Positions 1,239-63,957 of a stretch of DNA of 64,000 bases are shown piece after piece. The notes under the pieces are model-generated. The model was not told the DNA's origin, searched no databases, and saw nothing but the letters and a program-made list of their open reading frames with translations. The first letter of the stretch is position 1, and each line of letters opens with the position of its first letter. Where the stretch lies: NCBI GenBank assembly GCA_035530195.1, contig DATKVG010000128.1, forward strand, positions 597 through 64,596, in the 5' to 3' direction. This DNA comes from Candidatus Bathyarchaeia archaeon (GTDB lineage: Bacteria > Hydrogenedentota > Hydrogenedentia > Hydrogenedentales > SLHB01). A program made the position numbers and the translations under genes.

Positions 1239-1399
1239 AAACCCCTCCACACACACGCTAACCAAAAACAATCAACCCCTTCAACCTCCTCGCTTGCGTC
1301 TTTTTTTCATCCTTCCTCCTTCCTCCTTTCCATCTGTCCCATTATTTGACATGCCTTTTTACCTGATCCAATATGGCATTGGTGCCAGGGAGACTTACA

Positions 1400-5390: not shown

Positions 5391-5453
5391 ACCTTCCCCG
5401 ATTTCGGGCGTAATAGCCGGTGACGCCGTTGACGGCGCAACCGGAGATTTGCC

Positions 5454-7802: not shown

Positions 7803-7803
7803 C

Positions 7804-8553
7804 ATGCGCGTCCGCGTCTCATGGAAAGAATGGGTGGCAATCCTGGCGTTGCTGGGCGTGGCAGCCGTCATCATCCTGCCCGCCCTCAGCCGCGCCAGGG
7901 AAAGCGCCCGCCGGGCGTCCTGCGCCAACAACCTCAAACAACTCGGCCTGGTCTTCAAAATGTTCGCCAACGAACACAAGGGCCTGTTCCCGCCCCTCAG
8001 CCCGAACCCCGGCAACTGGATCATGGACGTCAACACCGTGTTTCCCGAGTACGTATCCGACCTCCACATCTTTATCTGCCCCGACAGCCCGTTCGCCTAC
8101 GACGATACCTTCACGCTCCGCAGGACGTTCGACCACCCCGGCGCGAATGCCGGCGACATGCACCCCGACTGCGTCTCGTCCCTCTTCTACACCTACACCG
8201 GTTACACCCTCCTCAGCGACGAGCAGGCGCTGGCCCTCTACGAGGCGTTCGAGCAAGGCTGCGGCGAGTTTGACCAGGCCGGCAACGTCGATGCCGCGGT
8301 CCCCGTATGGCCCGGCAGCGGCCGAACCAACGGCTACGGGCCCGAAGGCATTCCCGTCATGTGGGACCGGATTCCGCCAACCGACCCCGAGTTTTCCCAC
8401 ACGCCCTGCGGCGCAAACATCCTCCACCACAACGGCAGCGTCCAGTTCGTCCCCTACTCGCCGTACAACACCTCCAACAACTTTCCCGTAACCCGCCTCA
8501 CCGCACTCACGTTCGGCAGTTCCATCCCCACCCTCTCCGGCGACTGCTACTGA
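7804..8553 (+). CDS. DUF1559 / H-X9-DG pseudopilin-like protein
   Basis: IILPALSRARESARRASCANNLKQLGLVFKMFANEHKG ... ANILHHNGSVQFVP. It is clearly paralogous to the C-terminal domain of 4413..5390. The start is 2 nt after the upstream stop. Confidence 0.8.
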   Translation: MRVRVSWKEWVAILALLGVAAVIILPALSRARESARRASCANNLKQLGLVFKMFANEHKGLFPPLSPNPGNWIMDVNTVFPEYVSDLHIFICPDSPFAYDDTFTLRRTFDHPGANAGDMHPDCVSSLFYTYTGYTLLSDEQALALYEAFEQGCGEFDQAGNVDAAVPVWPGSGRTNGYGPEGIPVMWDRIPPTDPEFSHTPCGANILHHNGSVQFVPYSPYNTSNNFPVTRLTALTFGSSIPTLSGDCY

Positions 8554-45545: not shown

Positions 45546-46532
45546 ATGAACCGCTTGATGTTGTTAGGCTTCCTGCTTGCCACAGCGACGGCACAAGGCA
45601 GTGGGACGTTGCAACTTGGCGAGCCTACAGTTGAACAAGATCGTATCACGGTACCTGTCGTGCTTGGCGGCGACTTGAGCGGCGGTGTTTCGGCGATGGA
45701 TTTTCGGTTTCGCTACAACCCGGAGGCGTTGCAGCCGGTATCGGTGGTTGCGGGCACGGCGGCTGAGCGCGCCGACAAACGGGTGATGAGCAACCAGCGG
45801 ACGCCGGGCGAGTACGCGGTGGTGATGATGGGCTTCAATCAGTCGTCGTGCGGGCCGGGCGAGGCCATTCGGATTGTGCTGCAGCGTCTGCAAGGGCCGG
45901 ACCAGAAGTGGGACCTGAGCCTGAGCGACCCGACGATGTCGAGTGTGGATGGGCGGCTGATTGAAAGCCAGGTGCTGCCATCGGACATCGAGCCGGCGCG
46001 AGAGGTTGACCAGGGTCAGGAAGAAGAGGAGACGGGGCGTCAACCACGACTTCCGGAGGTGGATACGGGCGCGGAGGAGGCGGGACCGGTGAAAGAACTG
46101 GCGGCGCCGCAGGGTGCAGGCTATGATGCGCCTATGGACGGACCGGTCGCGGAAGGGGCGTCAAGAACCGCGGCGGCTGAAAGTCTGAAAGCCGCCTTGC
46201 AGTCGGCCGAAGAGGTGCGGCAAGGAATTGAGTCGCCGGAACAGAATCCGGCCGATCAGCTTGAGGGGCTGGGGCAAGAAGCCGGTGTCGTGGGCGAAAC
46301 GGGATTGAACGTGGCCACCGAGAGCGGCGGCCGAATAGATACAGCAGGTGTTACAGCTTCGGGTAGGATGTCGCCCGATCAGGCTTTGCGGAACAATACA
46401 GTTGAACCTCAGTCGGGAACCAACGCGGTGGAACGGCGTGGCGGAACCTATATGCCGTTTGCGGTAGCGGGTTTTTGCGTGTTAGCGTTGGCGGCCGTCC
46501 TTGTGTGGCGGCGGTCCAGACTGATTGGCTAA
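45546..46532 (+). CDS. Exported cohesin-like domain protein with an acidic linker and a C-terminal TM anchor
   Basis: It has a signal peptide. ITVPVVLGGDLSGGVSAMDFRFRYNPEALQPVSVVAG...YAVVMMGF resembles the cohesin fold signature. The C-terminus is MPFAVAGFCVLALAAVLVWRRSR. Confidence 0.55.
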   Translation: MNRLMLLGFLLATATAQGSGTLQLGEPTVEQDRITVPVVLGGDLSGGVSAMDFRFRYNPEALQPVSVVAGTAAERADKRVMSNQRTPGEYAVVMMGFNQSSCGPGEAIRIVLQRLQGPDQKWDLSLSDPTMSSVDGRLIESQVLPSDIEPAREVDQGQEEEETGRQPRLPEVDTGAEEAGPVKELAAPQGAGYDAPMDGPVAEGASRTAAAESLKAALQSAEEVRQGIESPEQNPADQLEGLGQEAGVVGETGLNVATESGGRIDTAGVTASGRMSPDQALRNNTVEPQSGTNAVERRGGTYMPFAVAGFCVLALAAVLVWRRSRLIG

Positions 46533-47276: not shown

Positions 47277-47488
47277 TCGCCGTTGTTCACGACGGTTTCA
47301 ATGCAGGCTCATTGGGCATTTCTCCCCGGTCCGGAGCAGGCGCGGGCAGCCTCGATTCAACTTGTTCATTCTGCCTTCACATCCCTTTGTGTCACCTGTT
47401 CTATAAGGGCAACAAGCAGGGCCAGATGCTTATTGCCTGGTGCTCAAGCCGGCGATATGATACCTCCGGCGAAAAGAGGATTGTTGCC

Positions 47489-49495
47489 ATGTTGCCGTTT
47501 GCACTGCTTCTTGCGGCCGGTGTGCTGAGCCAAGCCGCAACACCGTTACCGGCCGAGTTGGCCGAAGCCGCCGCCTGGGCGGGAGCGAAGTTCGAGGGCA
47601 TTGAACAGCCCGCCCCGTATGCCTTTGACACCGGTCCTTTTTTCGGGACGCCGGATTTTGTGCGGGGCGTCGCGGGATGGGCGGTTGAGCGAGGCAAGCG
47701 GCAAATTGATCCGGCCCGAACCGGCCATACGATCGTTTACCGCGACCCCGCGACCGGGCTTGCGATCCGGTGCGAGGGCGTGGTCTACAGCGATTTTCCG
47801 ACGGTCGAGTGGACGCTCTTTTTGAAGAATGAGGGGACAGCGCCGGTTCCGCTGAAGGATGTGCTGGCGATTAGGACGGGTTTCCGCAAGGAGCCCGGCA
47901 AGAGGTTTGTCCTTTATCACCACTCGGGGGACAATTGCACCGCCGACAGCTACGAACCGCATGTCACCGAGCTGGTGGCCACGGAGAAATTGCGGCTCGC
48001 CAACACCGGCGGCCGGCCCACCCAGACCACCTTCCCGTATTTCAACGTCTCGGCGGGCAACAAAGGCGTGATTTTTGTTGTTGCATGGCCGGGGCAGTGG
48101 TTTGCGGAGTTCGCACGGAACTCCGGCAACTCCCTGACGCTTGCCGCGGGGCAGGATCGGGTGCAACTCGACCTGCAGCCGGGCGAGGAAATCCGCACGC
48201 CGCTGATCGTGCTCCAGTTCTGGCACGGGGAAGGCGAGGCGGGGCGCGTTCGGTCGCAGAACGTGTGGCGGGCCTGGATGATCGCGCACAACATCCCGCG
48301 GCCCGGCGGGAACCTGCCGCCGCTGCCGCAGTTGGCCGCGTGCAGCAGCCACCAGTTCGGCGAGATGATCCACGCCGATTCGGAAAGCCAGAAGTTTTTC
48401 GTGAGCAAATACCTCGAGCGCGGGTTCAAACTGGCGTACTGGTGGATGGACGCGGGCTGGTACTGGTGCGACGGGCAATGGCCAAAAACGGGGACGTGGG
48501 AAGTCGATACGAGCCGGTTCCCGGGCGGGCTTCGTCCGATCAGCGATTTTGCGCTCGAGCGCGGCGTGCACACGCTGGTGTGGTTCGAGCCGGAGCGCGT
48601 CCATAGCGGGACGTGGCTGGCGGATCAGCGGCCGCAATGGGTGCATGGCGGGAAGGACGGCGGGCTGCTGGACCTGGGCAACCCCGAGGTGCGCGCCTGG
48701 CTCACGGACCACGTCGACGGTCTGCTCAACAGCGAAGGGATTCACCTGTACCGCCAGGATTTCAACATCGACCCGCTCGAGTTCTGGAGGAAAAACGATG
48801 CGCCCGGCCGCCGGGGCATCACGGAGATCCGCCACGTCGAGGGTTACCTGGCGTACTGGGACGAATTGCGGCGGCGTCATCCGGATATGCTCATTGATTC
48901 ATGCGCCAGCGGCGGGCGGCGAAACGATCTCGAGACGCTGCGGCGTGCGGTGCCGCTGCTGCGGAGCGATTACATCATGGAACCGGTCGGCAACCAGTGC
49001 CATACCTGGGCGCTGGCGCAATGGTTTCCGTTTTACGGCACCGGCACCTCAAAAACCGATCCATACCTGATCCAGAGCACGTTATGCCCGCATTTCACCG
49101 CGTGCTGGGATATGCGCGACGCGACGATCGATTACGAGGGGATCCGGCGAATCATCGACCAGTGGACCGAGGTGGCGCCGTGCTATTTCGGCGACTACTA
49201 CGCGCTGACGCCGTATTCGCTCGCAGAGGATCAGTGGATCGCGTGGCAGTTCGACCTGCCGGGCGAAGGCAGGGGATTTGTCCAGGCGTTCCGGCGCGGA
49301 GGCTGCGAGGGCGAGTCTGTCAAGCTGAAACTGCAGGGGCTGGACGCGGAAGCGGCCTATACCCTTTGCGATGCAAGCCAGCCTGAACAGGTGAAGACAT
49401 ATACGGGCGCGGAGTTGCTTGCCGCCGGCTTTGATTTGCCTATTACGCAAAAACCCGGCGCAGTACTCTGGAAATACAGCAAAGTTGCTCAATAA
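47489..49495 (+). CDS. GH36-like alpha-galactosidase, exported
   Basis: KLAYWWMDAGWY, WFEPERV, LYRQDFNIDP and DSCASGGRRNDLETL. Signal peptide MLPFALLLAAGVLSQA, with AAGAGGA upstream of the ATG at 47489. The ORF track starts at 47312. Confidence 0.75.
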   Translation: MLPFALLLAAGVLSQAATPLPAELAEAAAWAGAKFEGIEQPAPYAFDTGPFFGTPDFVRGVAGWAVERGKRQIDPARTGHTIVYRDPATGLAIRCEGVVYSDFPTVEWTLFLKNEGTAPVPLKDVLAIRTGFRKEPGKRFVLYHHSGDNCTADSYEPHVTELVATEKLRLANTGGRPTQTTFPYFNVSAGNKGVIFVVAWPGQWFAEFARNSGNSLTLAAGQDRVQLDLQPGEEIRTPLIVLQFWHGEGEAGRVRSQNVWRAWMIAHNIPRPGGNLPPLPQLAACSSHQFGEMIHADSESQKFFVSKYLERGFKLAYWWMDAGWYWCDGQWPKTGTWEVDTSRFPGGLRPISDFALERGVHTLVWFEPERVHSGTWLADQRPQWVHGGKDGGLLDLGNPEVRAWLTDHVDGLLNSEGIHLYRQDFNIDPLEFWRKNDAPGRRGITEIRHVEGYLAYWDELRRRHPDMLIDSCASGGRRNDLETLRRAVPLLRSDYIMEPVGNQCHTWALAQWFPFYGTGTSKTDPYLIQSTLCPHFTACWDMRDATIDYEGIRRIIDQWTEVAPCYFGDYYALTPYSLAEDQWIAWQFDLPGEGRGFVQAFRRGGCEGESVKLKLQGLDAEAAYTLCDASQPEQVKTYTGAELLAAGFDLPITQKPGAVLWKYSKVAQ

Positions 49496-52354: not shown

Positions 52355-55300
52355 TCAGCGAAGCGCGGGATGCACCGCCGGCTCCAGGCTGATCTGCACT
52401 TCGTGTTCCTGCCCCGCTTCCACCAATACGCGCGCCGTCCCTTCATAATATTGCTCATCCAAGAACCGGTGCGCCTTCACGTCATACTCGCCCGGAGGCA
52501 ATCCGCCCATCCGGAACTCGCCGGTCTCGTCACAGCCGGTTTGCGCATAATTTATCTGTCCGCTGTCCGCCGGCGTCACCTGCAGCCACGCACCCTCCAT
52601 CTCCACCGTCCCATAGATCGTGCCGAACATATTCGGCAACTCGGCGAGGTCAACCGTGACCTCCGTCATTTCGCCTGCGGTCACCACCGCGCTTACAATA
52701 CCCAACTGCCCCCGGTCCCGTGTCCTCATCATGATTTCGTACGGCCCCGCCGGCAGCCCCCGCCAGTCTGGTCCGTCCCAGGCATTGTACGCCTGCGCCC
52801 CAGCATCGGCGTTCGCTTGGCGGCACACCGTTGACACCGGCTCGCCCAGGGCTTCGGGATTCAGAAGTTGGACGACCAGCCGGCCCTCGGGCGCCAGGCG
52901 GATTGTCACCGGCCCGGTGTTTCCTGCTACAAGCGCGGGCAGAATCTGCGTCCCGTACCCCTCATGCCATGCCACCAGCCCCACGGTTTCGCCCGGCGTG
53001 AGGGGATCCAGCTTGAATTGCCCCTCATTATCCGTCTTGGCATCTACACACGTCGCGTAGCCGAGCGTGTCGCGGCTGTCTTCTCGCAGCACACGCGGAT
53101 TGAAATACGGCGGCGCGTAGGCGCAGAGGCGTGCACTCGGCACGGCCGCACCGGTCCGCTCCTCCACCACGCGCCCCGTGAGCTTCGCCCCGCGGCTCAG
53201 CTTGACCACCACATCTTGGATGCTCCCCCCCTCCGGCATCTCCAACCGCGCCGTTTGCTCCGGCGCGTAACCTTTTGCGCTTACGTCGAGGCGTACCGCC
53301 GGCGGCGCGACCTTATCCAGCACGAAAGCCCCGTCTTCAGAGTTCACCGGCGTCCACTCACTCTTGTACTCCGCCACACCTTCCGGCGTTGGGTACAAAC
53401 GCACATGACGGACCCGGTACTCCGTGACGGGCTCGCCCGTGGCCGCGTCAATCACACGGCCCGCCACGGTCCCAAACCCGTATACCACCAACTCCACGTC
53501 CGTCGCGCCCACCGCCACTGCATCCTGGCGGGCCCACTGGTAACCGTTCGGATACGCAGTGACCGTGCACTTGGTCACGTCCCCTAGCGACGTGAACGCA
53601 AACCGGCCGTCGTCGCCGGTCTGGGTTTCCTCGTTAACGGGTCGCTCCTCCGGGTAACTTGATGCAGTCACGCGAACGCCGCCTACTGGTTTCCCGGAAC
53701 TGTCGACCACCCGCCCGCTGACGACGCCGGGGGAATTTCGGTTGAGCGTGACCACGAGATCCGTGAGGTTATGCGCGGGCATCGTAAAGTCAAACTCGGG
53801 GGTCGCGTAGTTCACGTCCTTTTTGTAGATCCACAACGTGTACTCGCCGGGCTCCACGTGTGCGAATGAAAATCGGCCGTTTGTGGCGCTTTTCGCGCGC
53901 TCGCCCCGGCCCCCGTAGAAACACACTTCCGCGCCCGTAATCGGCGATCCGGCCTCGTCGCGCAACAAACCTTCCAGCCGGTTGCCCGCGCCCAGATGGA
54001 CGTCTACTCCATCCACACCGTTTAAATCCGCCAGAGTTACCGGCGCCGACGTTTTAAATGCAAAGTCCTCGTGCTTCGCAAGCACGGTATATGTGGGTTC
54101 GGTCGGCAGGCCGCGGAACTGGTAGCGGCCATCTTCTTGCGTTTTGAGTTCTTCATAATTGAAATAATTGGGCCACGGCATCAGACACACGCGCGCATCC
54201 GCCAGCGGAACGTCTCGCCCCTCATATACCGTCCCGGAAATCGATCCGCCCCGTTCCAGCCGAAAGTCCACGCCCGTCATCATCTGTCCGCTTCGTAGCG
54301 TCACCTCTTTGGGCGGCTCCCGGTAACCCGGAAAGACATAATCGGTCGCGTTTTGGACGCATTGGAAAAAGCACTTGACTGGAAACAGATCCACAAACTG
54401 GTACTGCCCCGCCGCATCGGTCTTTGCGGCCCGGTTGTCATGAAACACCTCCAGCATGTGCCACGCGGTTTGCTGGAGATTAATCTCCGTCCTAAACTGA
54501 CCAAACGCGAACTCACCCAGCGTCATCGGAAAATCAGGAATCGGGTCGCCGGTGGAATTGTCATACACCCGCCCGCTGATGCTCGCCATCGGCTCCAGCG
54601 CCAACTCGCCCACATCTCCTTCCGCACCAACATCCGCCCGGCTGGCAAGGCCCACGCCCGATTTGAATGCGTGCAACACGAACGTCCCCTCGGGCAACGC
54701 TTCGAAACGGAACTGGCCCGTGGCGTCTGTCTTGACGTTTGCGGTCGCGTCATGCCCCACGCCCACCACCACGTCGGCGTCGGCCACGGGTTGCCCGCCC
54801 TGGTCAACGACGCTGCCGACTAAGCCGGTAGCGGATGCATTGGCCGCCTGGCCAGTCTTCCGCGCGGCGGACGTGTCATGCGCCGGCGCAGAGGTCGTGA
54901 CGGGTTTGACGCCTTGTTGCGCAGAATCAGGCGCTGACGCCGCCACCCGTGGTGCGCCAGGCGCGGCCGGAAGCCCTCCTCGTTTGACTGCGGCGACCGA
55001 CACAACCGCCGCTATCAGTATGAGCACCCCACCGGCCACAGCAAGTTTCAACAAGCCCCCGCTTGCCGCCAATGCCGCCGCGCCACCCGTGGCGCCGCGA
55101 GACCCCGCCAACGCCAGTCTTCCCAGCGCCGCCGTAAGAGCCGCCGGGGCCGCCATGGCCGACTTACCCGCCAGCATGCCGGCCAACACGGCCGCGCCGA
55201 CGGAAATCCCGCGGCGCCTGAGGTGTTTCCGCGTCGATTCGATGCCGCGGGCGATCCGTACATTCACCGTCGTCCGCGACAGGCCCAGCGCTTCCGCCAC

Positions 55301-55729
55301 CGCCACCAATGACCGGCCTTCCAGAAAGTGCAGTACAATGGGTTGCCGCAGTTTCTCCGGCAGCGCCGCAATGGCCTCGTCCACGTACTGTTGCACGTCT
55401 TCCCACCCCGGCTCCGCCGGCGCCGCCAACTCCTTTGCGTACCGTTGCTCGCGCGCCACCCGGCGCAGTTGAGACTTGCGACGGTTGATGGCGTGGTTTG
55501 TTGCCACCACATACAGCCACGGGCCCAGCGGCTGGCGCCTCCTCGGCGCTTTTTGCGCCAGCGACAGAAAACACTCCTGTGCCGCGTCTTCCGCGTCGGT
55601 GTCGTTTCCCAATACGCGTCTGCACGTGGCGTACACCAATCCTGCATAACGTCCCGCAACTTCCGCAAACGCCTGCGCGTCACCCGAATCGCGCCAGCGT
55701 TCCAGCAAAGTCGCATCCCCTGAGTGCAT
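52355..55729 (-). CDS. ECF sigma factor fused to a TM helix and a ~850-aa extracytoplasmic array of carboxypeptidase-regulatory-like (CarboxypepD_reg-type) repeats
   Basis: Sigma region 2 (AEDAAQECFLSLA...PWLYVVATNHAINRRK) and region 4 (LPEKLRQPIVLHFLEGRSLVAVAEALGLSRTTVNVRIARG). The TM is LAVAGGVLILIAAVVSVAAV. Then there are about 8-9 repeats of the G-x-V-x-D-x-x-G-x-P-[IV] type (e.g. VSGRVVDSSGKPVGGVRVTA). The start at MHSGD (55729) has GAGGAG 7 nt upstream. The ORF track extends to 55780. Confidence 0.8.
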   Translation of the reverse strand: MHSGDATLLERWRDSGDAQAFAEVAGRYAGLVYATCRRVLGNDTDAEDAAQECFLSLAQKAPRRRQPLGPWLYVVATNHAINRRKSQLRRVAREQRYAKELAAPAEPGWEDVQQYVDEAIAALPEKLRQPIVLHFLEGRSLVAVAEALGLSRTTVNVRIARGIESTRKHLRRRGISVGAAVLAGMLAGKSAMAAPAALTAALGRLALAGSRGATGGAAALAASGGLLKLAVAGGVLILIAAVVSVAAVKRGGLPAAPGAPRVAASAPDSAQQGVKPVTTSAPAHDTSAARKTGQAANASATGLVGSVVDQGGQPVADADVVVGVGHDATANVKTDATGQFRFEALPEGTFVLHAFKSGVGLASRADVGAEGDVGELALEPMASISGRVYDNSTGDPIPDFPMTLGEFAFGQFRTEINLQQTAWHMLEVFHDNRAAKTDAAGQYQFVDLFPVKCFFQCVQNATDYVFPGYREPPKEVTLRSGQMMTGVDFRLERGGSISGTVYEGRDVPLADARVCLMPWPNYFNYEELKTQEDGRYQFRGLPTEPTYTVLAKHEDFAFKTSAPVTLADLNGVDGVDVHLGAGNRLEGLLRDEAGSPITGAEVCFYGGRGERAKSATNGRFSFAHVEPGEYTLWIYKKDVNYATPEFDFTMPAHNLTDLVVTLNRNSPGVVSGRVVDSSGKPVGGVRVTASSYPEERPVNEETQTGDDGRFAFTSLGDVTKCTVTAYPNGYQWARQDAVAVGATDVELVVYGFGTVAGRVIDAATGEPVTEYRVRHVRLYPTPEGVAEYKSEWTPVNSEDGAFVLDKVAPPAVRLDVSAKGYAPEQTARLEMPEGGSIQDVVVKLSRGAKLTGRVVEERTGAAVPSARLCAYAPPYFNPRVLREDSRDTLGYATCVDAKTDNEGQFKLDPLTPGETVGLVAWHEGYGTQILPALVAGNTGPVTIRLAPEGRLVVQLLNPEALGEPVSTVCRQANADAGAQAYNAWDGPDWRGLPAGPYEIMMRTRDRGQLGIVSAVVTAGEMTEVTVDLAELPNMFGTIYGTVEMEGAWLQVTPADSGQINYAQTGCDETGEFRMGGLPPGEYDVKAHRFLDEQYYEGTARVLVEAGQEHEVQISLEPAVHPALR

Positions 55730-55936
55730 AACCGACCTCCTCGACGATTCTAACCCATTCTGCCTATATAACAGCGCCAATGCCGGTTCTGATCAGAATA
55801 ATCTGCAGCGCAACAATCACAAGAATTTGTGGAACAAATGGAAAGCTGGTTGGCTCAATTCCAGCTTAGGCACAAGGCCGACTTCGCCGAAGTGGCCCTC
55901 GCTTTAGCGCCTCTTGCGTCTCTTGTGGTAAGCTTC

Positions 55937-58900
55937 TTACCGCAGCGCGGGATGGACAGCCGGCTGCATTTCGATTTGCACTTCGCGTTCCTGACCTGCC
56001 TCTACCAATACGCGGGCCTGGCCCTCGTAATCCTGCTCGTCCGAAAACCGGTACGCCTTCACATCATACTCGCCCGGCGGCAACCCGCCGATCCTGAACA
56101 TCCCACTCTCATCCGTGTACCCATAGGCATACATAGTGCGTTCACTTCCGGCGGGAGAGACATGTACGCTTGCCCACCCCAGCTCAATCACGCCATAAAC
56201 ACTGCCGAACGCCGCGCCCGCTGTCGCCAGGTCGGCGACTACCTCCGTGGTTTCCCCCGCCGCCACTTCCGCGCTAAGCACGCCTAACTGACGGCTGTCC
56301 GGCGTCTGAATTACGACTTCGTACTGTCCCGCCGGAAGCCCGCGCCACTCCGTTCCCGAATCGCCCTGATACGCACCGTCTACCTGGCGGCACCACGTCA
56401 GAACCGGCGCGTCAATAACGTGCGCGTTCTCAACGCGGACTACAAGCCTTCCTTCGGGTGCCAGCCGGATATCTAAAGGCACGGCGCCTTTGCCGACAAC
56501 GACCAGCGGCAGAATCTGTGTGGCGTAACCGTCATGCCATGCAACCACCCCCACCTTTTCGCCTGGCGTAAACGGGTCCAGCACAAATCTCCCATCGCCG
56601 CCAGCCATGGTGGATATGCACGTCTTCAGGTTCAAAACACCGAGGTTGTCCGATTCTCTTAGCAGCATCGAATTGAAATATGTCGGCGAATAAGCACGCA
56701 CGCGCGCACCCGGCACCGCCGCGCCTGTCCGCTCGTCAATAATCCGTCCCGCAAGACTGGCGCCGCGGTTCAGTTTCAGCACCACATCTTCAATGCTGCC
56801 GCCCTCAGCCAATTCCAGGCGCTCCGTTTGTCCGGGGGCATAACCTTTTGCGCTCACCTCGATGCGCGTGGCCGGCGGCGCGACATCGCCCAGCTGAAAA
56901 GCCCCGTCTTCCGACTGCACCGGGAACCAATCCCTGTCGTACTCCGATTCACCACCCCATGTGCCAGGCCCGAACTGGACATGCAGGATGCGATACTCCG
57001 TCACCGGCTCGCCGCTTCCCGCGTCAACCACCCGGCCCGACACCGTTCCAAATCGCTGCACCACAAGTTCGAGATCCGTCGTCCCCACCGGCACGTGGTG
57101 CTGTCGCACAAACGTATAGTTGCCGGGATAGGCGTCCACGGCGCACGTGTTCGCATCGCCAAGTTCTGTGAACTCAAACCGGCCATCTTCGTCCGTCACG
57201 GTTTCCGCGCTTGCAGATTTCCCGCTGGGCGTGCGCGTATCGCTGAATGCATTTACTCTAACGTCATGCAGCGGTTCCCCTGCGCTGGTTACCACCCGGC
57301 CCCGGATGACGCCCGGTGTGCTCCGGCTTAGCGTGATCACCAGGTCGAGCAGGTCGCCCGCCGGCATCGTGAAGGACAAATAAGGGCTTTCAAAACTCAC
57401 CTCGTCCTTGCGCACCCACAACTTATAATTGCCCGGCGCCACGTGCGCAAACGAAAACCGCCCGTTCGAATCGCTCGTCCTGCTGCCGCCGTGGTCGCTG
57501 AAATGGACGTCCGCTGCGGCAACGGGCGACCCCGTGTCGTCCAGGAGTGTTCCCTCCAGCTTGTAGCCCGACGTCAGGCGAAAATCAATGCCGGACACGG
57601 CGCGCGCATCGGTTAAAGCAACCGGCTCGCTCGTTTGGAGAGCATAATCCTTGTGTGACGCGGCGACCTTGTAGGTTCCTCCGGTCGGCAGGCCCCGGAA
57701 CTCATAAGCGCCATCCGCACCCGTTGTCACGCCTTCAAAGCCGAAGAACGAATGCTTCGCCGGGACCAGTTCCACCCACGCTTTTTCCAGCGCAACGCCC
57801 CGGTCATTCAATACGGTCCCCGAAATCGATCCGCCCCGCTCCAGTGCCAAATCGACGCCCATGAGGGTTTCGCCCCGCCGCACGACAATCTCCTTCGGCA
57901 TGTCGCGCATGCCGGGGAAAACATACTCGCCGTCTTTTTTCTCCTCCGGCCAATAGCCGTATTTTGCCGCAAGCAGATCCACGATTTCATACATGCCCGC
58001 GCCGTCGCTCTGGCCGTACCGGTGCCCTTCCTGGAATGACTCCAGCATGACGCGCGCGCTGTTAAGCAAATCATTGTCTATCTGGAATTGCACCAGTTGA
58101 AACGTCAGATGTGGAATGCCTTCCCCGCTGGCTTTATCGTAGACTCGCCCGCTGACTCTGCCCAGCGGCTCAAGCGTCAAATCACCAAGGTCTCCTTGCG
58201 ACGGAACGTCCTCGAGACTCGCAAGGCCAACCGCTGACTTGAATGCATGCAGCACGAACGGGCCCGCCGGCAAAGATTCGAAACAGAACCCGCCCGATGC
58301 ATCGGTCTGGACGCCCGCCGTCTTTTCGTCGCCCACCCCCACTACCACTTCCGCGCCAGCCACCGGCCCGCCGTTATCATCAACAACGCTGCCGACAAGC
58401 GCACCCCCGGCCGCCAAGACGTCCCCGTCGTCTAACGGCGCACTGGACGAATCCTCAGCAGGCGCTGAACCCGCTACGGCTGCTGTCGCCTCGTCCGCAG
58501 CCACGGCGGGTACAGCAACGGGAGTGACCGCCCCAACCCCAGTCTCCGCGCGCAAATTAACCACAAACACGGCAGCCGCCAATATGAAAAGCACCCCACC
58601 CACCCCGGCAAGCTTCAGTGCAATACCGCCCGCGGCCACGACCGCCGCGCCGCCCGCAGCGCCTCGCGTCCCCGCCAACGCAAGTTTCCCCAGCGCCGCA
58701 GTCAGACCCGCCGGAGCGGCTGTGCCTGTTTCAGCACTCAGCATGGCGGCAAGCGCAACCGCGCCCACTGAAATCCCGCGCCGCTTCAGTTGCTCCCGCG
58801 TCTCTTCAATTCCCCGGGCGATTCGCCCGCTCACCGTCGTCCGCGGCAATCCCATCGCTTCCGCGACCGCCGCCTGCGAACGACCCTCAAAGAAATGCAG

Positions 58901-59296
58901 CACGATCGGCTGGCGCAGTTTATCCGGCAGCGCCGCAACCGCCTCGTCCACGTACTGCTGCACATCATCCCAATCCGCTTCCGCCCCCCTCACCGTCTCC
59001 TCCGCATACCGATGCTCGCGCGCAACCCGGCGTACCTGCGACTTTCGCCGGTTTAGCGCCGAGTTTGTCGCCACAACGTAAAGCCACGGACCCAACGGCT
59101 GGCGCTTCTTCGGCGCCTTTTGCGCCAGCGACAGAAAACAATCCTGCACCACATCCTCGGCGTCGCTGTCGTTACCCAAAATACGCCGGCACGCGGAGTA
59201 CACCAGCCCCGCATACCGCGCCGCCAGTTCCGCAAACGCTTGCGCATCCCGTTCCTCGCGCCAGCGTTCCAGCAACACCGCGTCCCCTGAGTGCAT
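55937..59296 (-). CDS. ECF sigma factor fused to a TM helix and a carboxypeptidase-regulatory-like repeat array (tandem paralogue)
   Basis: It has the same architecture. The N-terminal ~100 aa and the C-terminal ~50 aa are near-identical to 52355..55729 by eye. The start at MHSGD (59296) has GAGGAG 7 nt upstream. Confidence 0.8.
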   Translation of the reverse strand: MHSGDAVLLERWREERDAQAFAELAARYAGLVYSACRRILGNDSDAEDVVQDCFLSLAQKAPKKRQPLGPWLYVVATNSALNRRKSQVRRVAREHRYAEETVRGAEADWDDVQQYVDEAVAALPDKLRQPIVLHFFEGRSQAAVAEAMGLPRTTVSGRIARGIEETREQLKRRGISVGAVALAAMLSAETGTAAPAGLTAALGKLALAGTRGAAGGAAVVAAGGIALKLAGVGGVLFILAAAVFVVNLRAETGVGAVTPVAVPAVAADEATAAVAGSAPAEDSSSAPLDDGDVLAAGGALVGSVVDDNGGPVAGAEVVVGVGDEKTAGVQTDASGGFCFESLPAGPFVLHAFKSAVGLASLEDVPSQGDLGDLTLEPLGRVSGRVYDKASGEGIPHLTFQLVQFQIDNDLLNSARVMLESFQEGHRYGQSDGAGMYEIVDLLAAKYGYWPEEKKDGEYVFPGMRDMPKEIVVRRGETLMGVDLALERGGSISGTVLNDRGVALEKAWVELVPAKHSFFGFEGVTTGADGAYEFRGLPTGGTYKVAASHKDYALQTSEPVALTDARAVSGIDFRLTSGYKLEGTLLDDTGSPVAAADVHFSDHGGSRTSDSNGRFSFAHVAPGNYKLWVRKDEVSFESPYLSFTMPAGDLLDLVITLSRSTPGVIRGRVVTSAGEPLHDVRVNAFSDTRTPSGKSASAETVTDEDGRFEFTELGDANTCAVDAYPGNYTFVRQHHVPVGTTDLELVVQRFGTVSGRVVDAGSGEPVTEYRILHVQFGPGTWGGESEYDRDWFPVQSEDGAFQLGDVAPPATRIEVSAKGYAPGQTERLELAEGGSIEDVVLKLNRGASLAGRIIDERTGAAVPGARVRAYSPTYFNSMLLRESDNLGVLNLKTCISTMAGGDGRFVLDPFTPGEKVGVVAWHDGYATQILPLVVVGKGAVPLDIRLAPEGRLVVRVENAHVIDAPVLTWCRQVDGAYQGDSGTEWRGLPAGQYEVVIQTPDSRQLGVLSAEVAAGETTEVVADLATAGAAFGSVYGVIELGWASVHVSPAGSERTMYAYGYTDESGMFRIGGLPPGEYDVKAYRFSDEQDYEGQARVLVEAGQEREVQIEMQPAVHPALR

Positions 59297-59414
59297 CACA
59301 AGTCTCCTCGCAGATTGTAGCTCATTCTGCCTATATAACAGCGCCGACGGCCGTCTTCGACGAAAACACAGTAGGGCCGACCTCCAGCTCGGCCCGGGCG
59401 TTTCTTTGCTCTTT

Positions 59415-59445
59415 CTCCAGACTCCGGACTCCAGACTCCGGACTA
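59415..59445. repeat. 15-bp tandem repeat (ctccagactccggac x2)
   Basis: Read directly, upstream of 55937..59296. Confidence 0.55.
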
Positions 59446-59498
59446 AAAAGACGCCCCGCGCCGCCTGGGGAAGGCTAAACGGCGGCGCGGGGCGTTTT
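59445..59498 (-). terminator. Strong (bidirectional-looking) terminator after the DUF3857 pair
   Basis: acgccccgcgccgcc-N15-ggcggcgcggggcgt is a 15-bp stem, flanked by aaaaag on one side and tttt on the other. Confidence 0.6.
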
Positions 59499-59555: not shown

Positions 59556-61682
59556 CTATTGGGCCGAGCCGGGTTCGGTGGTGAGGATGATGCGTTGCCG
59601 GGTGAGGTTTGCGCGTGCTTCGTGGCACTTTTTGTAGTCGGCGTATGCGTCGCGCGGGGCGGACTGGACTTTTAGCTGGTAGGCGTCGGTGAACTCGATG
59701 GTTTGGCCGTTGGGTGTGAGCGTCGCCTCGTAGGATGCGGGGCCGGAATCGAATTTGACGCTGTCGGGGATTGCGTAGGGTTTGAGGCCGTCGGGCAGGC
59801 GGATGACGCCCGAGGTGGTTTCGCTGACGATCTGGCTCCAGAACAGGTCGAACTCGCGCGTGGGCCTGCCGACGTCGCCCGCGTCGTACGTGACCCCGGG
59901 GATGTTCAGCAGCAGCAGGTCGCCCGCTTTTACGGCAAACCCCGGAATCGTTATCTCTAAAGTGATGGCCGGCGTGACCTTGAGGTCGGTGAAATCGGTG
60001 CAGGTGAAGTTATCGAGTACGGCGGCGTGGTGGAGGCTCGAAGCGATCTGCTGCAACTGGTTGCGGAGTTGCTGCTGGTCGAGGCTTTTCATCCCGCGCA
60101 TCCAGGCGCCGGTGTTTCCCTCGCCGGTGTAGGCCACTTTCAGTTCGAGCGTGCCGTCCGGCTCGAGCGTCGAGTCGAACGTGGTGGCGATTTTCTCCTG
60201 GTCGAGCGATGAAATCTGCGTGTTGGCTACTGTTGCCGGTTGAGCCGAATCGGCGCGCGCGGGCGCGATCACGAGCGCGGGGCTGTTCTGGATGCCCGCG
60301 GGCAGCGTCCCGTACGGGATCAGATCGCTGGCCGCGTTGGTGAATGTCTTTTCGCCGCCCAGATAGACGGCCGACCGGTCAAAAGCACGGATGGACGCCG
60401 CTTCCTGGCAAAGCGGGCCGGCGTTGCGGCTTCGCACGAGGGCAAACACTGCGGGCACGCCGGCCGCCTCGAGCATTTTACAGTAGAGGAAATTCTTGTC
60501 GAGCTCGTTGGCCATGCCCCTGCGCACGGTTTCATCGGGCGAGTGCGGCACGACGCGGTAGTTCTTGTGCGGCACCGGCAGCGTGCGGATCGAGCGGGCG
60601 ATGAAATCGTGGATGGCCTGCGGCCCGCCTTGCGCCGCCAGCTCGACCGCCTTGGCTTTGACGGCTTCCGACAGCGGCGCTACGCCGTCGAGCGCCCGCC
60701 CGTAATCGCGCACGATGTCGTCCCACGTCTTGGCTTCGGCGAGCGTGACAGTCGAGGCGAAACTGGTCACCGGCGGCATCAGCGGCTCGCGCAATATGCC
60801 TGGCTGCGGCGCCGAAAGCGTGTACGTGAAACGGACGATGCCGTCTTTTACTTCGCGGGCCTCCTCGATGGGCGCCGACTCGACCGCGTGCACGTTTCGC
60901 GCGAGTTCGGCCTCGCGCGCGGCCGGGATCAGGACAACGACTTCTTTGCGCAAGAGGGGCGCTTCGTAGCGGAACACTTCGTATGTGTAGAACGGTTCGA
61001 GCGAGGTCTCGCGCGTCCGGACAATCGTGTATTGGACATCCAGGATGCACCAGGGCGCGGGCTCTTTTGCGGCAAACCGGTACCGGGCGAGCCGGCGGTA
61101 ATCGGGCAGCGAGGCGTACACGGACTCGTTCTTGACAGCCGCGTCGGACAGGTGCAGCACACGGCCTTCCGGCGTGACGGTGAGTGCGAAATCGATTTGG
61201 GGCTGATCGGTGTCTTCAAAATACGGCACCAAATGGGAGCCGGCATCCTCGCCGCGCTGCCGCAAAATCTTTGTAATCACCCGGTTGGTGTCTTTGACGA
61301 CGCCGGGCGTGCAGAGGTCGATCGTGCGCCGCTCGAGTAGCGTGGCGGTCCCGTCGGCGGGAAAATCGGCCTCGGCCGGCTGGGACTCGAGGCACACCGT
61401 GAGGTCGGGGTCGGTGATTTGATCGGCCGCCTCGATTTCGTCGAACAGGCGCGCCCGCTGAAGCTGGATCTGGTTGACTTTCTCCTTTGGAAAGGTTTTC
61501 AGTTCGCCGCCGCGCAGCTCAAACACGACGCTGTCCTCGGTGATCTCGCGCAAGCGCCCCAGTTGCTGCTCGCCGTCGCGCAGGTAGAGGGTGTCGGCCG
61601 TGGCGGAGAGAGCGACAGCGTAGGCGCTAAGAGCGTAGGCGGCAAAAACGGCCGCGAAAAGTCTTGCGGAAAACGTTTTCAT
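59556..61682 (-). CDS. DUF3857/transglutaminase-like family protein, apparently lacking the catalytic Cys
   Basis: It has a signal peptide and an overall layout parallel to the upstream paralogue. By-eye alignment places ANELDKNFLYCKMLEAAGVPAVFALV opposite GDCTDKAILFSTMLKVIGVDSFPLIV, so Cys is replaced by Glu. Confidence 0.7.
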   Translation of the reverse strand: MKTFSARLFAAVFAAYALSAYAVALSATADTLYLRDGEQQLGRLREITEDSVVFELRGGELKTFPKEKVNQIQLQRARLFDEIEAADQITDPDLTVCLESQPAEADFPADGTATLLERRTIDLCTPGVVKDTNRVITKILRQRGEDAGSHLVPYFEDTDQPQIDFALTVTPEGRVLHLSDAAVKNESVYASLPDYRRLARYRFAAKEPAPWCILDVQYTIVRTRETSLEPFYTYEVFRYEAPLLRKEVVVLIPAAREAELARNVHAVESAPIEEAREVKDGIVRFTYTLSAPQPGILREPLMPPVTSFASTVTLAEAKTWDDIVRDYGRALDGVAPLSEAVKAKAVELAAQGGPQAIHDFIARSIRTLPVPHKNYRVVPHSPDETVRRGMANELDKNFLYCKMLEAAGVPAVFALVRSRNAGPLCQEAASIRAFDRSAVYLGGEKTFTNAASDLIPYGTLPAGIQNSPALVIAPARADSAQPATVANTQISSLDQEKIATTFDSTLEPDGTLELKVAYTGEGNTGAWMRGMKSLDQQQLRNQLQQIASSLHHAAVLDNFTCTDFTDLKVTPAITLEITIPGFAVKAGDLLLLNIPGVTYDAGDVGRPTREFDLFWSQIVSETTSGVIRLPDGLKPYAIPDSVKFDSGPASYEATLTPNGQTIEFTDAYQLKVQSAPRDAYADYKKCHEARANLTRQRIILTTEPGSAQ

Positions 61683-61686
61683 ACGG

Positions 61687-63957
61687 TCAGCCCTTTTCGG
61701 TTAGGAAGATTTCTTTTTTGGAGAAAGCGGAGATGGACCGGAGCGCGTCGCGGTAGCCTGCGTAGTCCTTGACGGGTACGATCCGTTCAAGCCGCTGGAA
61801 CGATTCGCGGAACACCACGTGCCCGTCGCGCTCGTCGTATTTCGCCGAATAGTCGAGATACGGGTTCTTGATTTCGAGTGCCGGCGGCAGCCATTTCGCC
61901 TTGAAACCTTTGGGCATAGTGAGGTCGATTTCGAGAATCCGCTCCTCGGTCGTCATGTACTGGATGGGATACTTGCGCGATTCAAGCGAGACTTCGCCGT
62001 AATCTCTCTCGAGCGTCGGCATCGTGAGGTACATCACGCTGCCGGTGCGTATGGCGTGGCCCGGGAGCCGGTAATCGAGCGTCATCACGAGCGGCTCGCC
62101 GAGATCCTCGAGCTTCGAGAGCGTGAAATCGTCGAGGAGGGCGCCCGGGCTGATCGAGTTGACGTATTGCGCCATCAGCATGGGCCTCGAGTCTTCACGC
62201 GCGCTTTTCCAGAACCCGCGCACGCCGGCCTCGACGCTGCCGTTGTATTCGGTCCTCGTTTTTACTTCAACATCGCCCTCGGGGCTGAGCTTGATGTTCA
62301 GGCGCGAGAGCCTGCGGTTGTCCGATGGCGCGGGGACTGGGATCTTCTTGATGTCGCCGCGGATCGCGTTGAGTGCGAAAATGCCGTGGTCGTCCATGCG
62401 GAAGTACGGGTACCGGTAATTCTGTGCGGTGGTGTCGAGGTAGAACGACCGGTCGCCGACGCAGACCTCGCTGATGCAATGGTTGCCGCTGAGCACTGGG
62501 ATTTCGGTGATGGCGGTTCCGGCGTCGTTTGTTTGGACGATGAGGGGGAAGCTATCCACGCCGATGACTTTCAGCATCGTCGAGAACAGGATCGCCTTGT
62601 CGGTGCAGTCGCCATACCGGTTCTCGAAGGTTTCGTCGGCGGTGTGGCCGGAAAACCCGGCGCCCAGGCTGCCCTTGATTGAGATGTACCGCGTTTTCTC
62701 CTGCACCCAATGATAGATGCGCGCTATTTTCTCATCGAGTGTGTCGGCCCCCTCGGTGATCTCCTTGACGGCCCCTTCGATCTGGGCCGTCGGAACCATC
62801 CTGGGCGTTTGAAGCTTGCTAAGCAGGTCGTAGACTTCCTCGTGCGACTTGAAGATCGAACTGTCCATCATGGGCACGATGTCTTCGGTGGGCGGCATCG
62901 CCGGCTCGGGCGTGATAGGCGGCATGTTTTCGAGCGTCCAGCAATAAGTCTTGATGCCGTCCTTTTCCTCGACCACCGGCTCGGCCAGCGCCGGGTCGGG
63001 GAAGTTGCGCGTCATGTAGTTGTACGTGGTCCCAGCGGGCACATATACCTTGACGCGGGAGAACAGCACGGGTTCGGCGCCCTGGAATTGAAACCCCGGG
63101 CTGAACAGGCGCGGATCTTCCGGGTTGTAATAGTCATACTCGTACTCGTACTCGACGACCGAGCCCACTTCGACGCCCTGGACCACCCCCGAGAGCATTT
63201 TCAGGTGGGGGTTGAAAAACACCATCTCCTGCGTCGGGCTGGCCACCTTGATCTCGTCCGGCGACAGGGTCGAAACGGCCCCGTCGGGCGATACCGAGCG
63301 GGCGTAAAGGATTCTGGCCCTGCTGCGGCCTTCCGTAAACCCGATCGACACCTGCGCCCAGCCTTTTTGCTCCTCTTTCAAGACCAGCCCGGCGAAATGG
63401 TAGCGATACGCGTTTGAGCCGTCGGGGCGCAGCGTGAATTCGCCGTCGTCCACCAGCACAATGCCCGGCACGCCCGGGAACTGCTTCGCCGTCTCGCCGG
63501 CCGCCTCGAGCTTGGTCTGGGCCAGTGGCGAAAGGGCTTCGGGACCCGCCTCGGCGGCGCCTTCCTGGCGGTTGTCGGGCAGGCGGAACTCGACAAGCTG
63601 GACCTCGTTGCGCGAAACGGGGTCGCGCCCGGGAACGGCAAAATTCTGCCCATCGAATTTGATTTTTCCCGCGGCCTCGATCGGGTCGCCCTGAAACAAC
63701 ACCAAGTCATCGAGGACGGCGACCGCCTTCTCAGACGGCGGCTGCGCGGGCGCCTCCTGGGCGACCGCCATCGGGCCGGCTGAGTAGAGGACAACGGCAA
63801 TCAGCGCCGCCGCTACGGCGCCCGCTGCGGCGCCCATTGCGGCCCCCGCTATGGCAATTGCACGGGGCAGTTTTTTCAAAACGGGTTCCTCCGGTGTTTG
63901 GCCAACAACGGTTTGGCTCCATGCGGCCCGGACGGCCGCAGACGCCACAAAATACAC
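61687..63957 (-). CDS. DUF3857 + transglutaminase-like cysteine protease core + DUF3858-like protein
   Basis: The RYGDCTDKAILFSTMLKVIGVDSFPLIV...GNHCISEV...FYLDTT pattern gives a Cys-His-Asp triad. The stop is 4 nt before the next gene's start. The N-terminal start position is uncertain and may lie about 60-80 nt downstream of 63957. Confidence 0.75.
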   Translation of the reverse strand: MYFVASAAVRAAWSQTVVGQTPEEPVLKKLPRAIAIAGAAMGAAAGAVAAALIAVVLYSAGPMAVAQEAPAQPPSEKAVAVLDDLVLFQGDPIEAAGKIKFDGQNFAVPGRDPVSRNEVQLVEFRLPDNRQEGAAEAGPEALSPLAQTKLEAAGETAKQFPGVPGIVLVDDGEFTLRPDGSNAYRYHFAGLVLKEEQKGWAQVSIGFTEGRSRARILYARSVSPDGAVSTLSPDEIKVASPTQEMVFFNPHLKMLSGVVQGVEVGSVVEYEYEYDYYNPEDPRLFSPGFQFQGAEPVLFSRVKVYVPAGTTYNYMTRNFPDPALAEPVVEEKDGIKTYCWTLENMPPITPEPAMPPTEDIVPMMDSSIFKSHEEVYDLLSKLQTPRMVPTAQIEGAVKEITEGADTLDEKIARIYHWVQEKTRYISIKGSLGAGFSGHTADETFENRYGDCTDKAILFSTMLKVIGVDSFPLIVQTNDAGTAITEIPVLSGNHCISEVCVGDRSFYLDTTAQNYRYPYFRMDDHGIFALNAIRGDIKKIPVPAPSDNRRLSRLNIKLSPEGDVEVKTRTEYNGSVEAGVRGFWKSAREDSRPMLMAQYVNSISPGALLDDFTLSKLEDLGEPLVMTLDYRLPGHAIRTGSVMYLTMPTLERDYGEVSLESRKYPIQYMTTEERILEIDLTMPKGFKAKWLPPALEIKNPYLDYSAKYDERDGHVVFRESFQRLERIVPVKDYAGYRDALRSISAFSKKEIFLTEKG

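Follow-up and report, generated by a model that had tools for sequence, protein, structure and literature searches.

Adjacent genes of a Candidatus Hydrogenedentota bacterium encode extracytoplasmic function sigma factors joined to a transmembrane helix and a nine-repeat CarboxypepD_reg ectodomain

A 64,000-nucleotide stretch of contig DATKVG010000128.1 (assembly GCA_035530195.1), hereafter the window, carries two adjacent genes, A and B, each of which encodes in a single polypeptide an extracytoplasmic function (ECF) sigma factor, an Ala/Gly-rich linker, one transmembrane (TM) helix, and a long array of CarboxypepD_reg repeats. The coordinates of the features are collected in Table 1; the interval 52355-59296, which holds the pair, runs exactly from the stop codon of A to the ATG of B. 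An earlier note, made from the letters of the sequence, had described two neighboring single-polypeptide genes with complete sigma regions 2 and 4, an Ala/Gly-rich linker, one TM helix, and a large array of CarboxypepD_reg repeats outside the cytoplasm, and all of these parts are borne out in both proteins. We favor, with modest confidence, the view that A and B are each a membrane-tethered pro-sigma factor, a one-polypeptide device leading from sensor to transcription that would be released by regulated intramembrane proteolysis.

Both open reading frames (ORFs) are uninterrupted, extending as listed from 52355 to 55780 for A, with a TTG start, and from 55937 to 59299 for B, with a GTG start. 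The TTG at 55780 and the GTG of B are probably unused, and the ATG codons at 55729 and 59296 are preferred. Both ATG-initiated proteins open with MHSGDA, and each ATG follows a Shine-Dalgarno sequence, GAGGAGG 6 nt upstream in A and GAGGAG 7 nt upstream in B. The fusion itself could be put down to an error of sequencing, assembly, or ORF calling that had joined separate sigma and repeat genes, and the earlier note had singled out an undetected stop or frameshift as the point at which its reading might fail. Both ORFs run on from sigma region 4 into the repeats with no internal stop or frameshift, the GC content at third codon positions is coding-like over the whole length of gene A, and the architecture is common to the two independent copies in the window. 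The same fusion turns up in over 100 independent sequences, drawn from different samples and put together by different assemblers, and because the architecture is seen in dozens of independent metagenome or metagenome-assembled genome (MAG) sequences, it is not an artifact of assembly or ORF calling. ORF continuity and recurrence have already refuted that explanation, in whose favor nothing was found and to which we give practically no credence.

By sequence and predicted fold, the N-terminal part of A and B is an intact ECF (group 4) sigma-70 module made up of regions 2 and 4. Sigma70_r2 and Sigma70_r4_2/r4 exceed the Pfam gathering scores at the N terminus of both proteins, and Pfam gives no match for sigma regions 1.1 and 3 in either. 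The NCBIfam model TIGR02937 (sigma70-ECF) is matched over its full length by both, with scores of 69-75 bits where the cut-off is 42.9. Of the specific ECF subfamily models in NCBIfam, none is matched above its cut-off; TIGR02989, which describes a Rhodopirellula/Verrucomicrobium family, stops at 45 bits, below its cut-off of 124.6. In a HMMER alignment, residues 15-171 pair with residues 14-185 of Bacillus subtilis SigW, which is 187 aa long (E 6e-15), and end-to-end alignment is also obtained with SigE of Mycobacterium tuberculosis and sigmaE of Escherichia coli. Blocks shared with these three proteins include xCxRxLGNxxDAEDxxQxxF, WLYxxATN, and LPDKxRxxIVL...TVxxRIxRGxExxRxQL. The core- and DNA-binding motifs that were searched for, DAEDxxQxxF, WLxxIAxN, and LPxxxR...TVxxRxxRG, are present, which settles the earlier note's concern that conserved residues for binding DNA or RNA polymerase might be lacking from regions 2 and 4. 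In the AlphaFold2 (AF2) model of residues 1-252, the predicted local distance difference test score (pLDDT) is above 90 across sigma2 and sigma4, and the best PDB neighbors of the sigma model in Foldseek are SigW, sigmaE, AlgU, SigH, SigL, and SigK.

Within this module the family keeps three Cys or His positions, which in B are C35, C53, and H133: the Cys of sigma2.1 (xCRR) is conserved, that of sigma2.2 (Q[ED]CF) is invariant, and sigma4 contributes the His. These residues may form a redox or metal site.

The sigma module is connected to the membrane by a conserved, Ala/Gly-rich juxtamembrane linker of ~55 aa, in which residues 173-228 include no Cys and no His. Each protein has one strong hydrophobic segment (residues ~228-250; Kyte-Doolittle 19-residue mean 2.4-2.7), and the Kyte-Doolittle scan of A and B detected no second segment comparable with it. 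The AF2 model of full-length B comprises a helical sigma module, a stretch of low confidence from 190 to 297 that takes in a TM helix at 229-246, and, following the helix, a structureless stalk; the pLDDT of the linker itself is ~70-80 in the short model but falls below 50 when the full length is modeled. Among 129 family members, the 8 residues preceding the TM segment carry a net charge of +1.07 and the 8 following it one of +0.2, a bias that fits a cytoplasmic N terminus and from which the predicted topology of A and B is N-in/C-out. The TM segments of site-2 protease (S2P) substrates typically contain Gly, Pro, or Asn, and at least one of these is present in 118 of the 129. A Gly-containing TM helix, an Ala-rich cytoplasmic spacer, and a stalk of ~50 aa are compatible with, and no proof of, regulated intramembrane proteolysis. 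The amphipathic helix PxxLxxxLGKLAL, which is the hallmark of the linker, may be a minimal built-in anti-sigma element or else a docking site for a protease or partner.

The remainder of each protein is repetitive. Pfam detects CarboxypepD_reg (PF13620) with E values of 9e-68 and 4e-70, in 7 significant stretches per protein, and an iterated hidden Markov model (HMM) of the repeat resolves 9 colinear repeats in A and in B that fill residues ~300-1110, with no other domain between them in either protein. In the AF2 model of full-length B the repeat domains are all-beta (pLDDT 80-95), and a Foldseek search with the full model returns only generic strings of Ig-type domains (pilins, macroglobulin MG domains, contactin, and myosin-binding protein). 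A beta-sandwich domain measures ~4 nm by the textbook figure, and at that assumed length per domain the nine-domain rod would, if extended, be ~35 nm long, which is longer than a typical periplasm. Repeat 2 has an expansion of ~100 residues with a short helical insertion (residues 409-424 of B, helices 409-417 and 419-424, at ~58025-58072). This is the sole non-beta element of the array; it is poorly conserved between A and B, and repeat 2 of A has its equivalent.

A and B are members of a large family with a sharply defined N-terminal cassette. Alignment of the N-terminal 250 residues of 20 homologs gives the consensus RRG-[IV]-x-V-x-A-x-x-L-x-x-L-L ... A-A-P-x-x-L-T-A-A-L-G-K-L-A-L-A-G after sigma4, and then an Ala/Gly/Thr/Ser-rich spacer (median 26 residues), usually Lys-Lys, and the TM helix. 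With the N-terminal 251 aa as query, a word-indexed search was misled by low-complexity words, yielding 11 short proteins and missing the known relatives; a profile of the sigma-linker-TM cassette was therefore run exhaustively, by HMM, against 1.84 billion representatives. The top 150 matches all have E<1e-86 over the whole profile and a median length of 928 aa. Among the 138 new representatives at the top, a motif of the PxxLxxxLGKLAL type occurs at about residue 195 in 112, and 133 have a strong hydrophobic window ~40 residues past the motif.

In the species genomes of GTDB, the family is concentrated in MAGs of Candidatus Hydrogenedentota, often with several members per genome, and smaller numbers are found in Phycisphaerae, Pirellulales, and other Planctomycetota. 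The host of the window falls in the same phylum: every named relative of its histidinol dehydrogenase comes from Hydrogenedentota, at 64-66% identity, which together with the distribution of the family places it among the uncultured Candidatus Hydrogenedentota and not, as the earlier note's allusion to Planctomycetes-like genomes might suggest, among the planctomycetes. To our knowledge, Hydrogenedentota have no cultured representative. A CarboxypepD_reg ectodomain is present in 33 of 54 complete genome-encoded members; others of the 54 have FGE-sulfatase, Laminin_G_3, GyrI-like/Cass2, or STN domains, and ankyrin, DUF1080, and thioredoxin domains are found elsewhere. Because the sigma-linker-TM cassette is kept across hundreds of proteins with differing ectodomains, the pattern is the one expected of a transducer module with swappable sensors.

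How old the pair is can be judged from the divergence of the two copies, which are 57% identical over their full length (BLASTP). In a codon-level comparison, identity is 80% in sigma2, 78% in sigma4, and 68% in the conserved linker; the repeats range from 50 to 68%, with the middle ones at 50-56% and peaks in the last repeat (68%) and at residues 761-850. The earlier note had seen near-identical ends and a diverged middle, and it was right that conservation is higher at the ends than in the middle; at these values, however, the ends are not near-identical. Nor does the recent duplication that it had proposed agree with the data. Synonymous divergence (dS) between A and B is 0.9-1.5 along the whole gene, and so is saturating, and an ortholog of B with 88% identity (P0002), present in three independent assemblies, is followed on its 3' side by two unrelated opposite-strand genes, with no A-like gene. 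On this comparison the duplication is older than the divergence from the nearest relative known. The ratio of nonsynonymous to synonymous divergence (dN/dS) is 0.13 in sigma2 and sigma4, the most constrained parts, and 0.16-0.38 in the ectodomain repeats; because it is low in both, selection acts on the two halves alike in A and in B. What the earlier note had taken for ectodomain diversification is better described as relaxed purifying selection (dN/dS 0.24-0.38), with no positive diversification. The duplication is old, and every part of the two copies is under purifying selection. Elsewhere in Hydrogenedentota and Pirellulales, family members again stand in tandem on one strand, at L009 (942, 5144), L050 (2703, 6001), L058 (6001, 9265), and L073 (4323, 6001), which makes local duplication a regular mode of growth of the family.

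The two genes also share a promoter-like element of 22 nt, GGCGCTGTTATATAGGCAGAAT, which occurs in exactly two copies in the window, where 0 are expected, and has not changed between its sites 5' of A and of B although synonymous sites are saturated (dS ~1). It has a good -10-like hexamer and is without a classical -35, and a promoter scan found no canonical sigma-70 promoter 5' of A or B. Related elements of the form GGCG-N2-G-N-TAT-N3-GG-TAGAAT lie 15-45 nt upstream of many family genes (sites at L015, L019, L024, L030, L033, L039, L051, L052, L074, L001, and L003). When a relaxed pattern was run over 776 kb of family loci, 9 of its 15 matches fell within 70 nt 5' of a family gene, in intervals that account for ~0.35% of the sequence searched, an enrichment of ~170-fold. 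Since the matches cluster 5' of family genes, the element is specific to the family rather than a promoter in general use in these organisms. Group-specific autoregulated promoters are typical of ECFs, and the family element fits this picture (PMC7826278). Another candidate, the block TTTCGTCC, was present at four of five early loci and is not general across the family.

Taken together, these parts suggest how A and B might work. The sigma module would lie in the cytoplasm, joined to the inner membrane by the conserved two-helix linker and the one TM helix, and the disordered stalk of ~50 aa and the nine-domain Ig-like rod would project into the periplasm or envelope. A tethered sigma factor, possibly also masked by the PxxLxxxLGKLAL helix, would give no freely diffusing holoenzyme. 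A cue received by the ectodomain, whether the binding of a ligand or partner or damage, would bring about a first cut, at site 1, within the stalk or ectodomain; a site-2 protease would then cut inside the Gly-containing TM helix, and the freed sigma factor would turn on a regulon that probably includes its own gene, by way of the family-specific upstream element. The diverged paralogs A and B would respond to different cues. The N-in/C-out topology, release by proteolysis, autoregulation, and the kind of signal are all inferences. Regulated intramembrane proteolysis is the best-supported route because it is canonical for membrane-held ECF systems and has been demonstrated for IutY of Pseudomonas putida. 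In that protein, Prc trims the periplasmic part to ~50 aa, which makes it a substrate of RseP, and the sigma domain is released (PMC5411451); the stalk of the A/B type is likewise ~50 aa.

A number of observations count against this proposal. The linker contains no recognizable anti-sigma domain of either the zinc-binding anti-sigma (ZAS) or the FecR type, and in neither AF2 model are the linker helices docked confidently onto the sigma module. No ligand-binding or enzymatic domain is identifiable in the ectodomain by repeat HMM or Foldseek, the array being generically Ig-like. The ~40 window genes that were scanned include no S2P and no protease of the DegS or Prc type, and the contexts of five homologs reveal no conserved synteny or partner gene. 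The upstream element, too, is a misfit in spacing and sequence to a classical ECF promoter (GGAAC N16-17 CGT), its GGCG being only ~12 nt from TAGAAT; the group may use it as an autoregulated promoter of its own, or it may instead be the target of a shared or another regulator.

The main competing explanation, which we consider unlikely overall, is that the sigma factor works at the membrane with no need of proteolysis, in the manner of ToxR, CadC, or TcpP, with the flexible linker of ~55 aa reaching core RNA polymerase and membrane-proximal promoters and the ectodomain exerting its influence through oligomerization or conformation. The linker and its Gly/Ala spacer are long (median 26 residues from motif to TM) and are modeled by AF2 with low confidence, and so are probably flexible; tandem Ig arrays, as among the Foldseek neighbors, often mediate homophilic or heterophilic interactions; and a dedicated protease or anti-sigma gene is not found nearby, among those ~40 genes. 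However, we know of no sigma factor that has been shown to work while anchored in the membrane, and a tethered holoenzyme of ~400 kDa would be confined to nearby DNA. The strong conservation of the PxxLxxxLGKLAL helix suggests a specific interaction and not a passive tether, and the characterized fused sigma factor, IutY, needs to be released (PMC5411451).

It is rather improbable that A and B serve chiefly outside the cytoplasm, as structural or adhesive Ig-repeat proteins of the envelope or surface whose sigma part is either a coupling or feedback device, which might for example report when the array is turned over or shed, or a largely vestigial cytoplasmic anchor, a remnant of the sigma duplication and capture of a downstream gene described for Planctomycetes. 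A vestigial anchor is hard to reconcile with sigma2 and sigma4 being the most constrained regions of the protein and with the retention of their core- and DNA-binding motifs, and the feedback version is not really distinct from the pro-sigma explanation. Fortuitous capture of downstream sequences by duplicated sigma modules has been proposed by Pinto and da Fonseca (PMC7671368), but an accidental fusion would not account for the maintenance, across two phyla, of the cassette with the CarboxypepD_reg type of ectodomain. A function outside the cytoplasm would nevertheless suit a rod that exceeds the typical periplasm in length, and CarboxypepD_reg arrays that are related to the ectodomain and secreted as proteins on their own do exist (P0032, P0035, P0043, P0047, and P0048), one of them adjoining a family member (L001).

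The pro-sigma proposal can be carried further, to a version that we hold to be doubtful when taken as a whole. In it, the conserved linker helix would mask the sigma factor, the ~35-nm rod would span the periplasm as far as the outer membrane or surface, and envelope distance, envelope integrity, or surface-bound polymers would be read out through sigma release. The family would then be a distinct, unclassified ECF group that has expanded in Hydrogenedentota, and in some Planctomycetota, as a modular one-component sensor, and GGCG-N-TATA-GG-TAGAAT would be its non-canonical autoregulated promoter.

Table 1. Features of genes A and B and of the region upstream of B, in window coordinates
Feature	Position	Strand	Description
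Gene B	55937-59296	minus	1119 aa, database entry P0001; ECF sigma - TM - 9x CarboxypepD_reg
Gene B sigma region 2	59030-59224	minus	Residues ~25-89; Pfam Sigma70_r2 3.8e-13; AF2 pLDDT >90; Foldseek sigmaE region 2, root mean square deviation (rmsd) 1.9 A
Gene B sigma region 4	58808-58957	minus	Residues ~114-163; Pfam Sigma70_r4_2 5.1e-10; Foldseek sigmaE region 4, rmsd 1.5 A
Gene B juxtamembrane motif	58676-58714	minus	P195-AGLTAALGKLAL-207; family hallmark PxxLxxxLGKLAL
Gene B TM helix	58547-58615	minus	Residues ~228-250; contains Gly-Gly
Gene B post-TM low-complexity stalk	58403-58546	minus	Residues ~251-298; predicted disordered; A/B identity 28%, least conserved segment
Gene B ectodomain	55967-58396	minus	Residues 301-1110; nine tandem CarboxypepD_reg-like beta-sandwich repeats
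Promoter-like 22-nt element 5' of B	59324-59345	minus	GGCGCTGTTATATAGGCAGAAT; 28-49 nt from ATG
Gene A	52355-55729	minus	1124 aa, database entry P0003; ECF sigma - TM - 9x CarboxypepD_reg
Gene A sigma region 2	55463-55651	minus	Pfam
Gene A sigma region 4	55241-55390	minus	Pfam
Gene A juxtamembrane motif	55109-55147	minus	PAALTAALGRLAL; family alignment
Gene A TM helix	54980-55048	minus	Kyte-Doolittle
Gene A ectodomain	52385-54820	minus	Residues 304-1115; nine tandem CarboxypepD_reg-like repeats, colinear with B
Identical 22-nt element 5' of A	55757-55778	minus	GGCGCTGTTATATAGGCAGAAT; 28-49 nt from ATG
Intrinsic terminator	59444-59495	minus	15-bp GC-rich stem, 15-nt loop, UUUUU; -37.6 kcal/mol, z = -5.9; between DUF3857 gene and B

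Upstream of B and on the same strand are two DUF3857 paralogs, at 59556-61682 and 61687-63957 (708 and 756 aa), which share 23% identity over ~480 aa and of which the second has a transglutaminase-like core. DUF3857/transglutaminase genes are absent beside other family members and so are not conserved neighbors. Between the nearer paralog and B is the intrinsic terminator of Table 1, a very stable hairpin that a simple terminator scan overlooked because its loop is 15 nt; since it parts B from the upstream DUF3857 gene, B has a transcription start of its own. A and B are independent transcription units that have the upstream element in common. A short tandem repeat, CTCCAGA/CTCCGGA, occupies 59415-59444, between the terminator and the upstream element of B, and can be counted as 4.3 copies of a 7-nt unit or as 2.1 perfect copies of one of 14 nt.

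The scan of ~40 window genes found neither an anti-sigma factor nor a TonB-dependent receptor. The window also carries a conventional stand-alone ECF sigma factor of 199 aa at 3814-4413 on the plus strand, 28% identical to the sigma part of B, whose stop overlaps the start of a 325-aa gene (4413-5390) with a weak DUF1559 match; a 782-aa gene with no Pfam match (5454-7802) and a gene for a DUF1559 protein (7804-8553) follow. The genes from 3814 to 8553 may be a separate sigma/anti-sigma operon. The window is also rich in glycan-related genes, among them 45546-46532 (plus), 47312-49495 (plus), 18077-20788 (minus), and 1373-2557 (plus). The kinds represented are a cohesin-domain protein, GH36/melibiase-like, GH123-like, and BNR/sialidase-like proteins, two Gfo/Idh/MocA oxidoreductases (one with a twin-arginine translocation signal), and a sugar ATP-binding cassette system.

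Sigma factors with TM extensions are a known and computationally catalogued kind, and the CarboxypepD_reg family described here is large and uncharacterized; it introduces no new principle and overturns no concept. The architecture will not surprise a specialist, and its value lies in the size of the family, the linker motif, and the family-specific upstream element. Membrane-spanning ECF sigma factors are abundant in poorly studied phyla, and besides IutY and SCO4117 almost none has been tested. The A/B family is their dominant form in Hydrogenedentota, with a sharply conserved transducer cassette and swappable ectodomains, and offers a tractable case for how a membrane-tied sigma factor is activated. 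It is also a source of compact, possibly orthogonal devices that lead from sensor to transcription within one protein. The conserved linker motif and the upstream element provide handles for mutagenesis and reporter assays.

Among known systems, the closest in design is ECF57 (formerly ECF01-Gob) of the Planctomycetes, a group of multicopy ECFs with long, TM-containing, WD40-rich extensions and two conserved Cys residues, one in sigma2 and one in sigma4 (PMC8999054, PMC7826278, PMC4937300), which averages 5.3 copies per planctomycete genome (PMC7826278). Both groups begin with an ECF sigma factor and continue through a linker of the type RRG-[VI]-x-L...A-x-P-x-x-L, an amphipathic helix, and one TM helix to a very large repeat domain outside the cytoplasm, the C-terminal extension of A and B reaching ~870 aa past the TM. 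Both occur as many paralogs per genome, several per MAG in Hydrogenedentota for the A/B family; the sigma2.1 Cys (xCRR) is common to the two, and neither has been characterized experimentally. WD40-type relatives with the same sigma-RRG-linker-TM plan were recovered alongside the family (P0023, P0026, P0027, P0038, P0039, P0044, and P0049 of Urbifossiella). The differences are equally clear. The extension of A and B consists of nine CarboxypepD_reg repeats with no WD40 match in Pfam, and the sigma4 Cys of the WD40 type (LVLCYLEG) is His in A, in B, and in the family consensus (IVLHFxEG). The invariant Cys in Q[ED]CF is found in the A/B family and not in the WD40-type relatives, PxxLxxxLGKLAL (LGKLAL) is likewise specific to the A/B family, and that family is centered on Hydrogenedentota, whereas ECF57 is centered on Planctomycetota. 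Because two defining features, the WD40 repeats and the sigma4 Cys, are missing, we do not file A and B under ECF57; the A/B family would work in the manner of that group and is probably a sister group or a divergent subgroup of it.

The earlier note had stated that TM-containing ECF extensions are computationally catalogued, which is correct for ECF57/ECF01-Gob in Planctomycetes and for ECF48, ECF52, and ECF53 in Actinobacteria (PMC8999054, PMC7826278, PMC7671368). Its further statement that the architecture is experimentally uncharacterized stands for the CarboxypepD_reg type of ectodomain, as the literature searched contains no publication on sigma-CarboxypepD_reg fusions or on sigma factors of Hydrogenedentota; it does not stand for the general principle, since fusion of a sigma factor to a membrane sensor, with proteolytic release, has been studied in IutY (PMC5411451) and SCO4117 (PMC8999054). 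IutY, a sigma/anti-sigma hybrid of ECF243, resembles A and B in being a single polypeptide with a cytoplasmic ECF sigma factor, one TM helix, and a periplasmic sensor, and activation of its fused sigma factor by sequential Prc and RseP proteolysis is experimentally established (PMC5411451). It differs in having a FecR-type anti-sigma/periplasmic domain and in working with the TonB-dependent receptor IutA in iron signaling; A and B are without FecR or DUF4880 (Pfam, E<=0.01) and without an adjacent TonB-dependent receptor, and they have an Ig-like ectodomain of ~870 aa in its place. In ECF48, ECF52, and ECF53, the sigma factor is fused, as in A and B, to a membrane-spanning C-terminal extension with an extracytoplasmic domain, which in these Actinobacteria (e.g. 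SCO4117) is of a carbohydrate-binding type, and proteolytic regulation is predicted; SCO4117 of Streptomyces coelicolor (ECF52) has been studied experimentally (reviewed in PMC8999054). Besides belonging to another phylum and bearing another ectodomain, these groups have a ZAS-like zinc finger (HxxxCxxC) between sigma4 and the TM helix, whereas the linker of A and B lacks Cys and His.

The two-protein systems sigmaE-RseA and SigW-RsiW have a homologous sigma factor (E=6e-15 for SigW) that is likewise held at the membrane by a single-pass sensor, in their case an anti-sigma factor that is removed by regulated intramembrane proteolysis, and the same logic is proposed here for A and B. The difference is that A and B would achieve with one polypeptide what these systems achieve with two, with no recognizable or co-encoded anti-sigma factor. 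Conserved sigma modules carrying unrelated C-terminal extensions have been described in Planctomycetes by Pinto and da Fonseca (PMC7671368), and the A/B family, with its constant cassette and changing ectodomains, displays the same evolutionary behavior.

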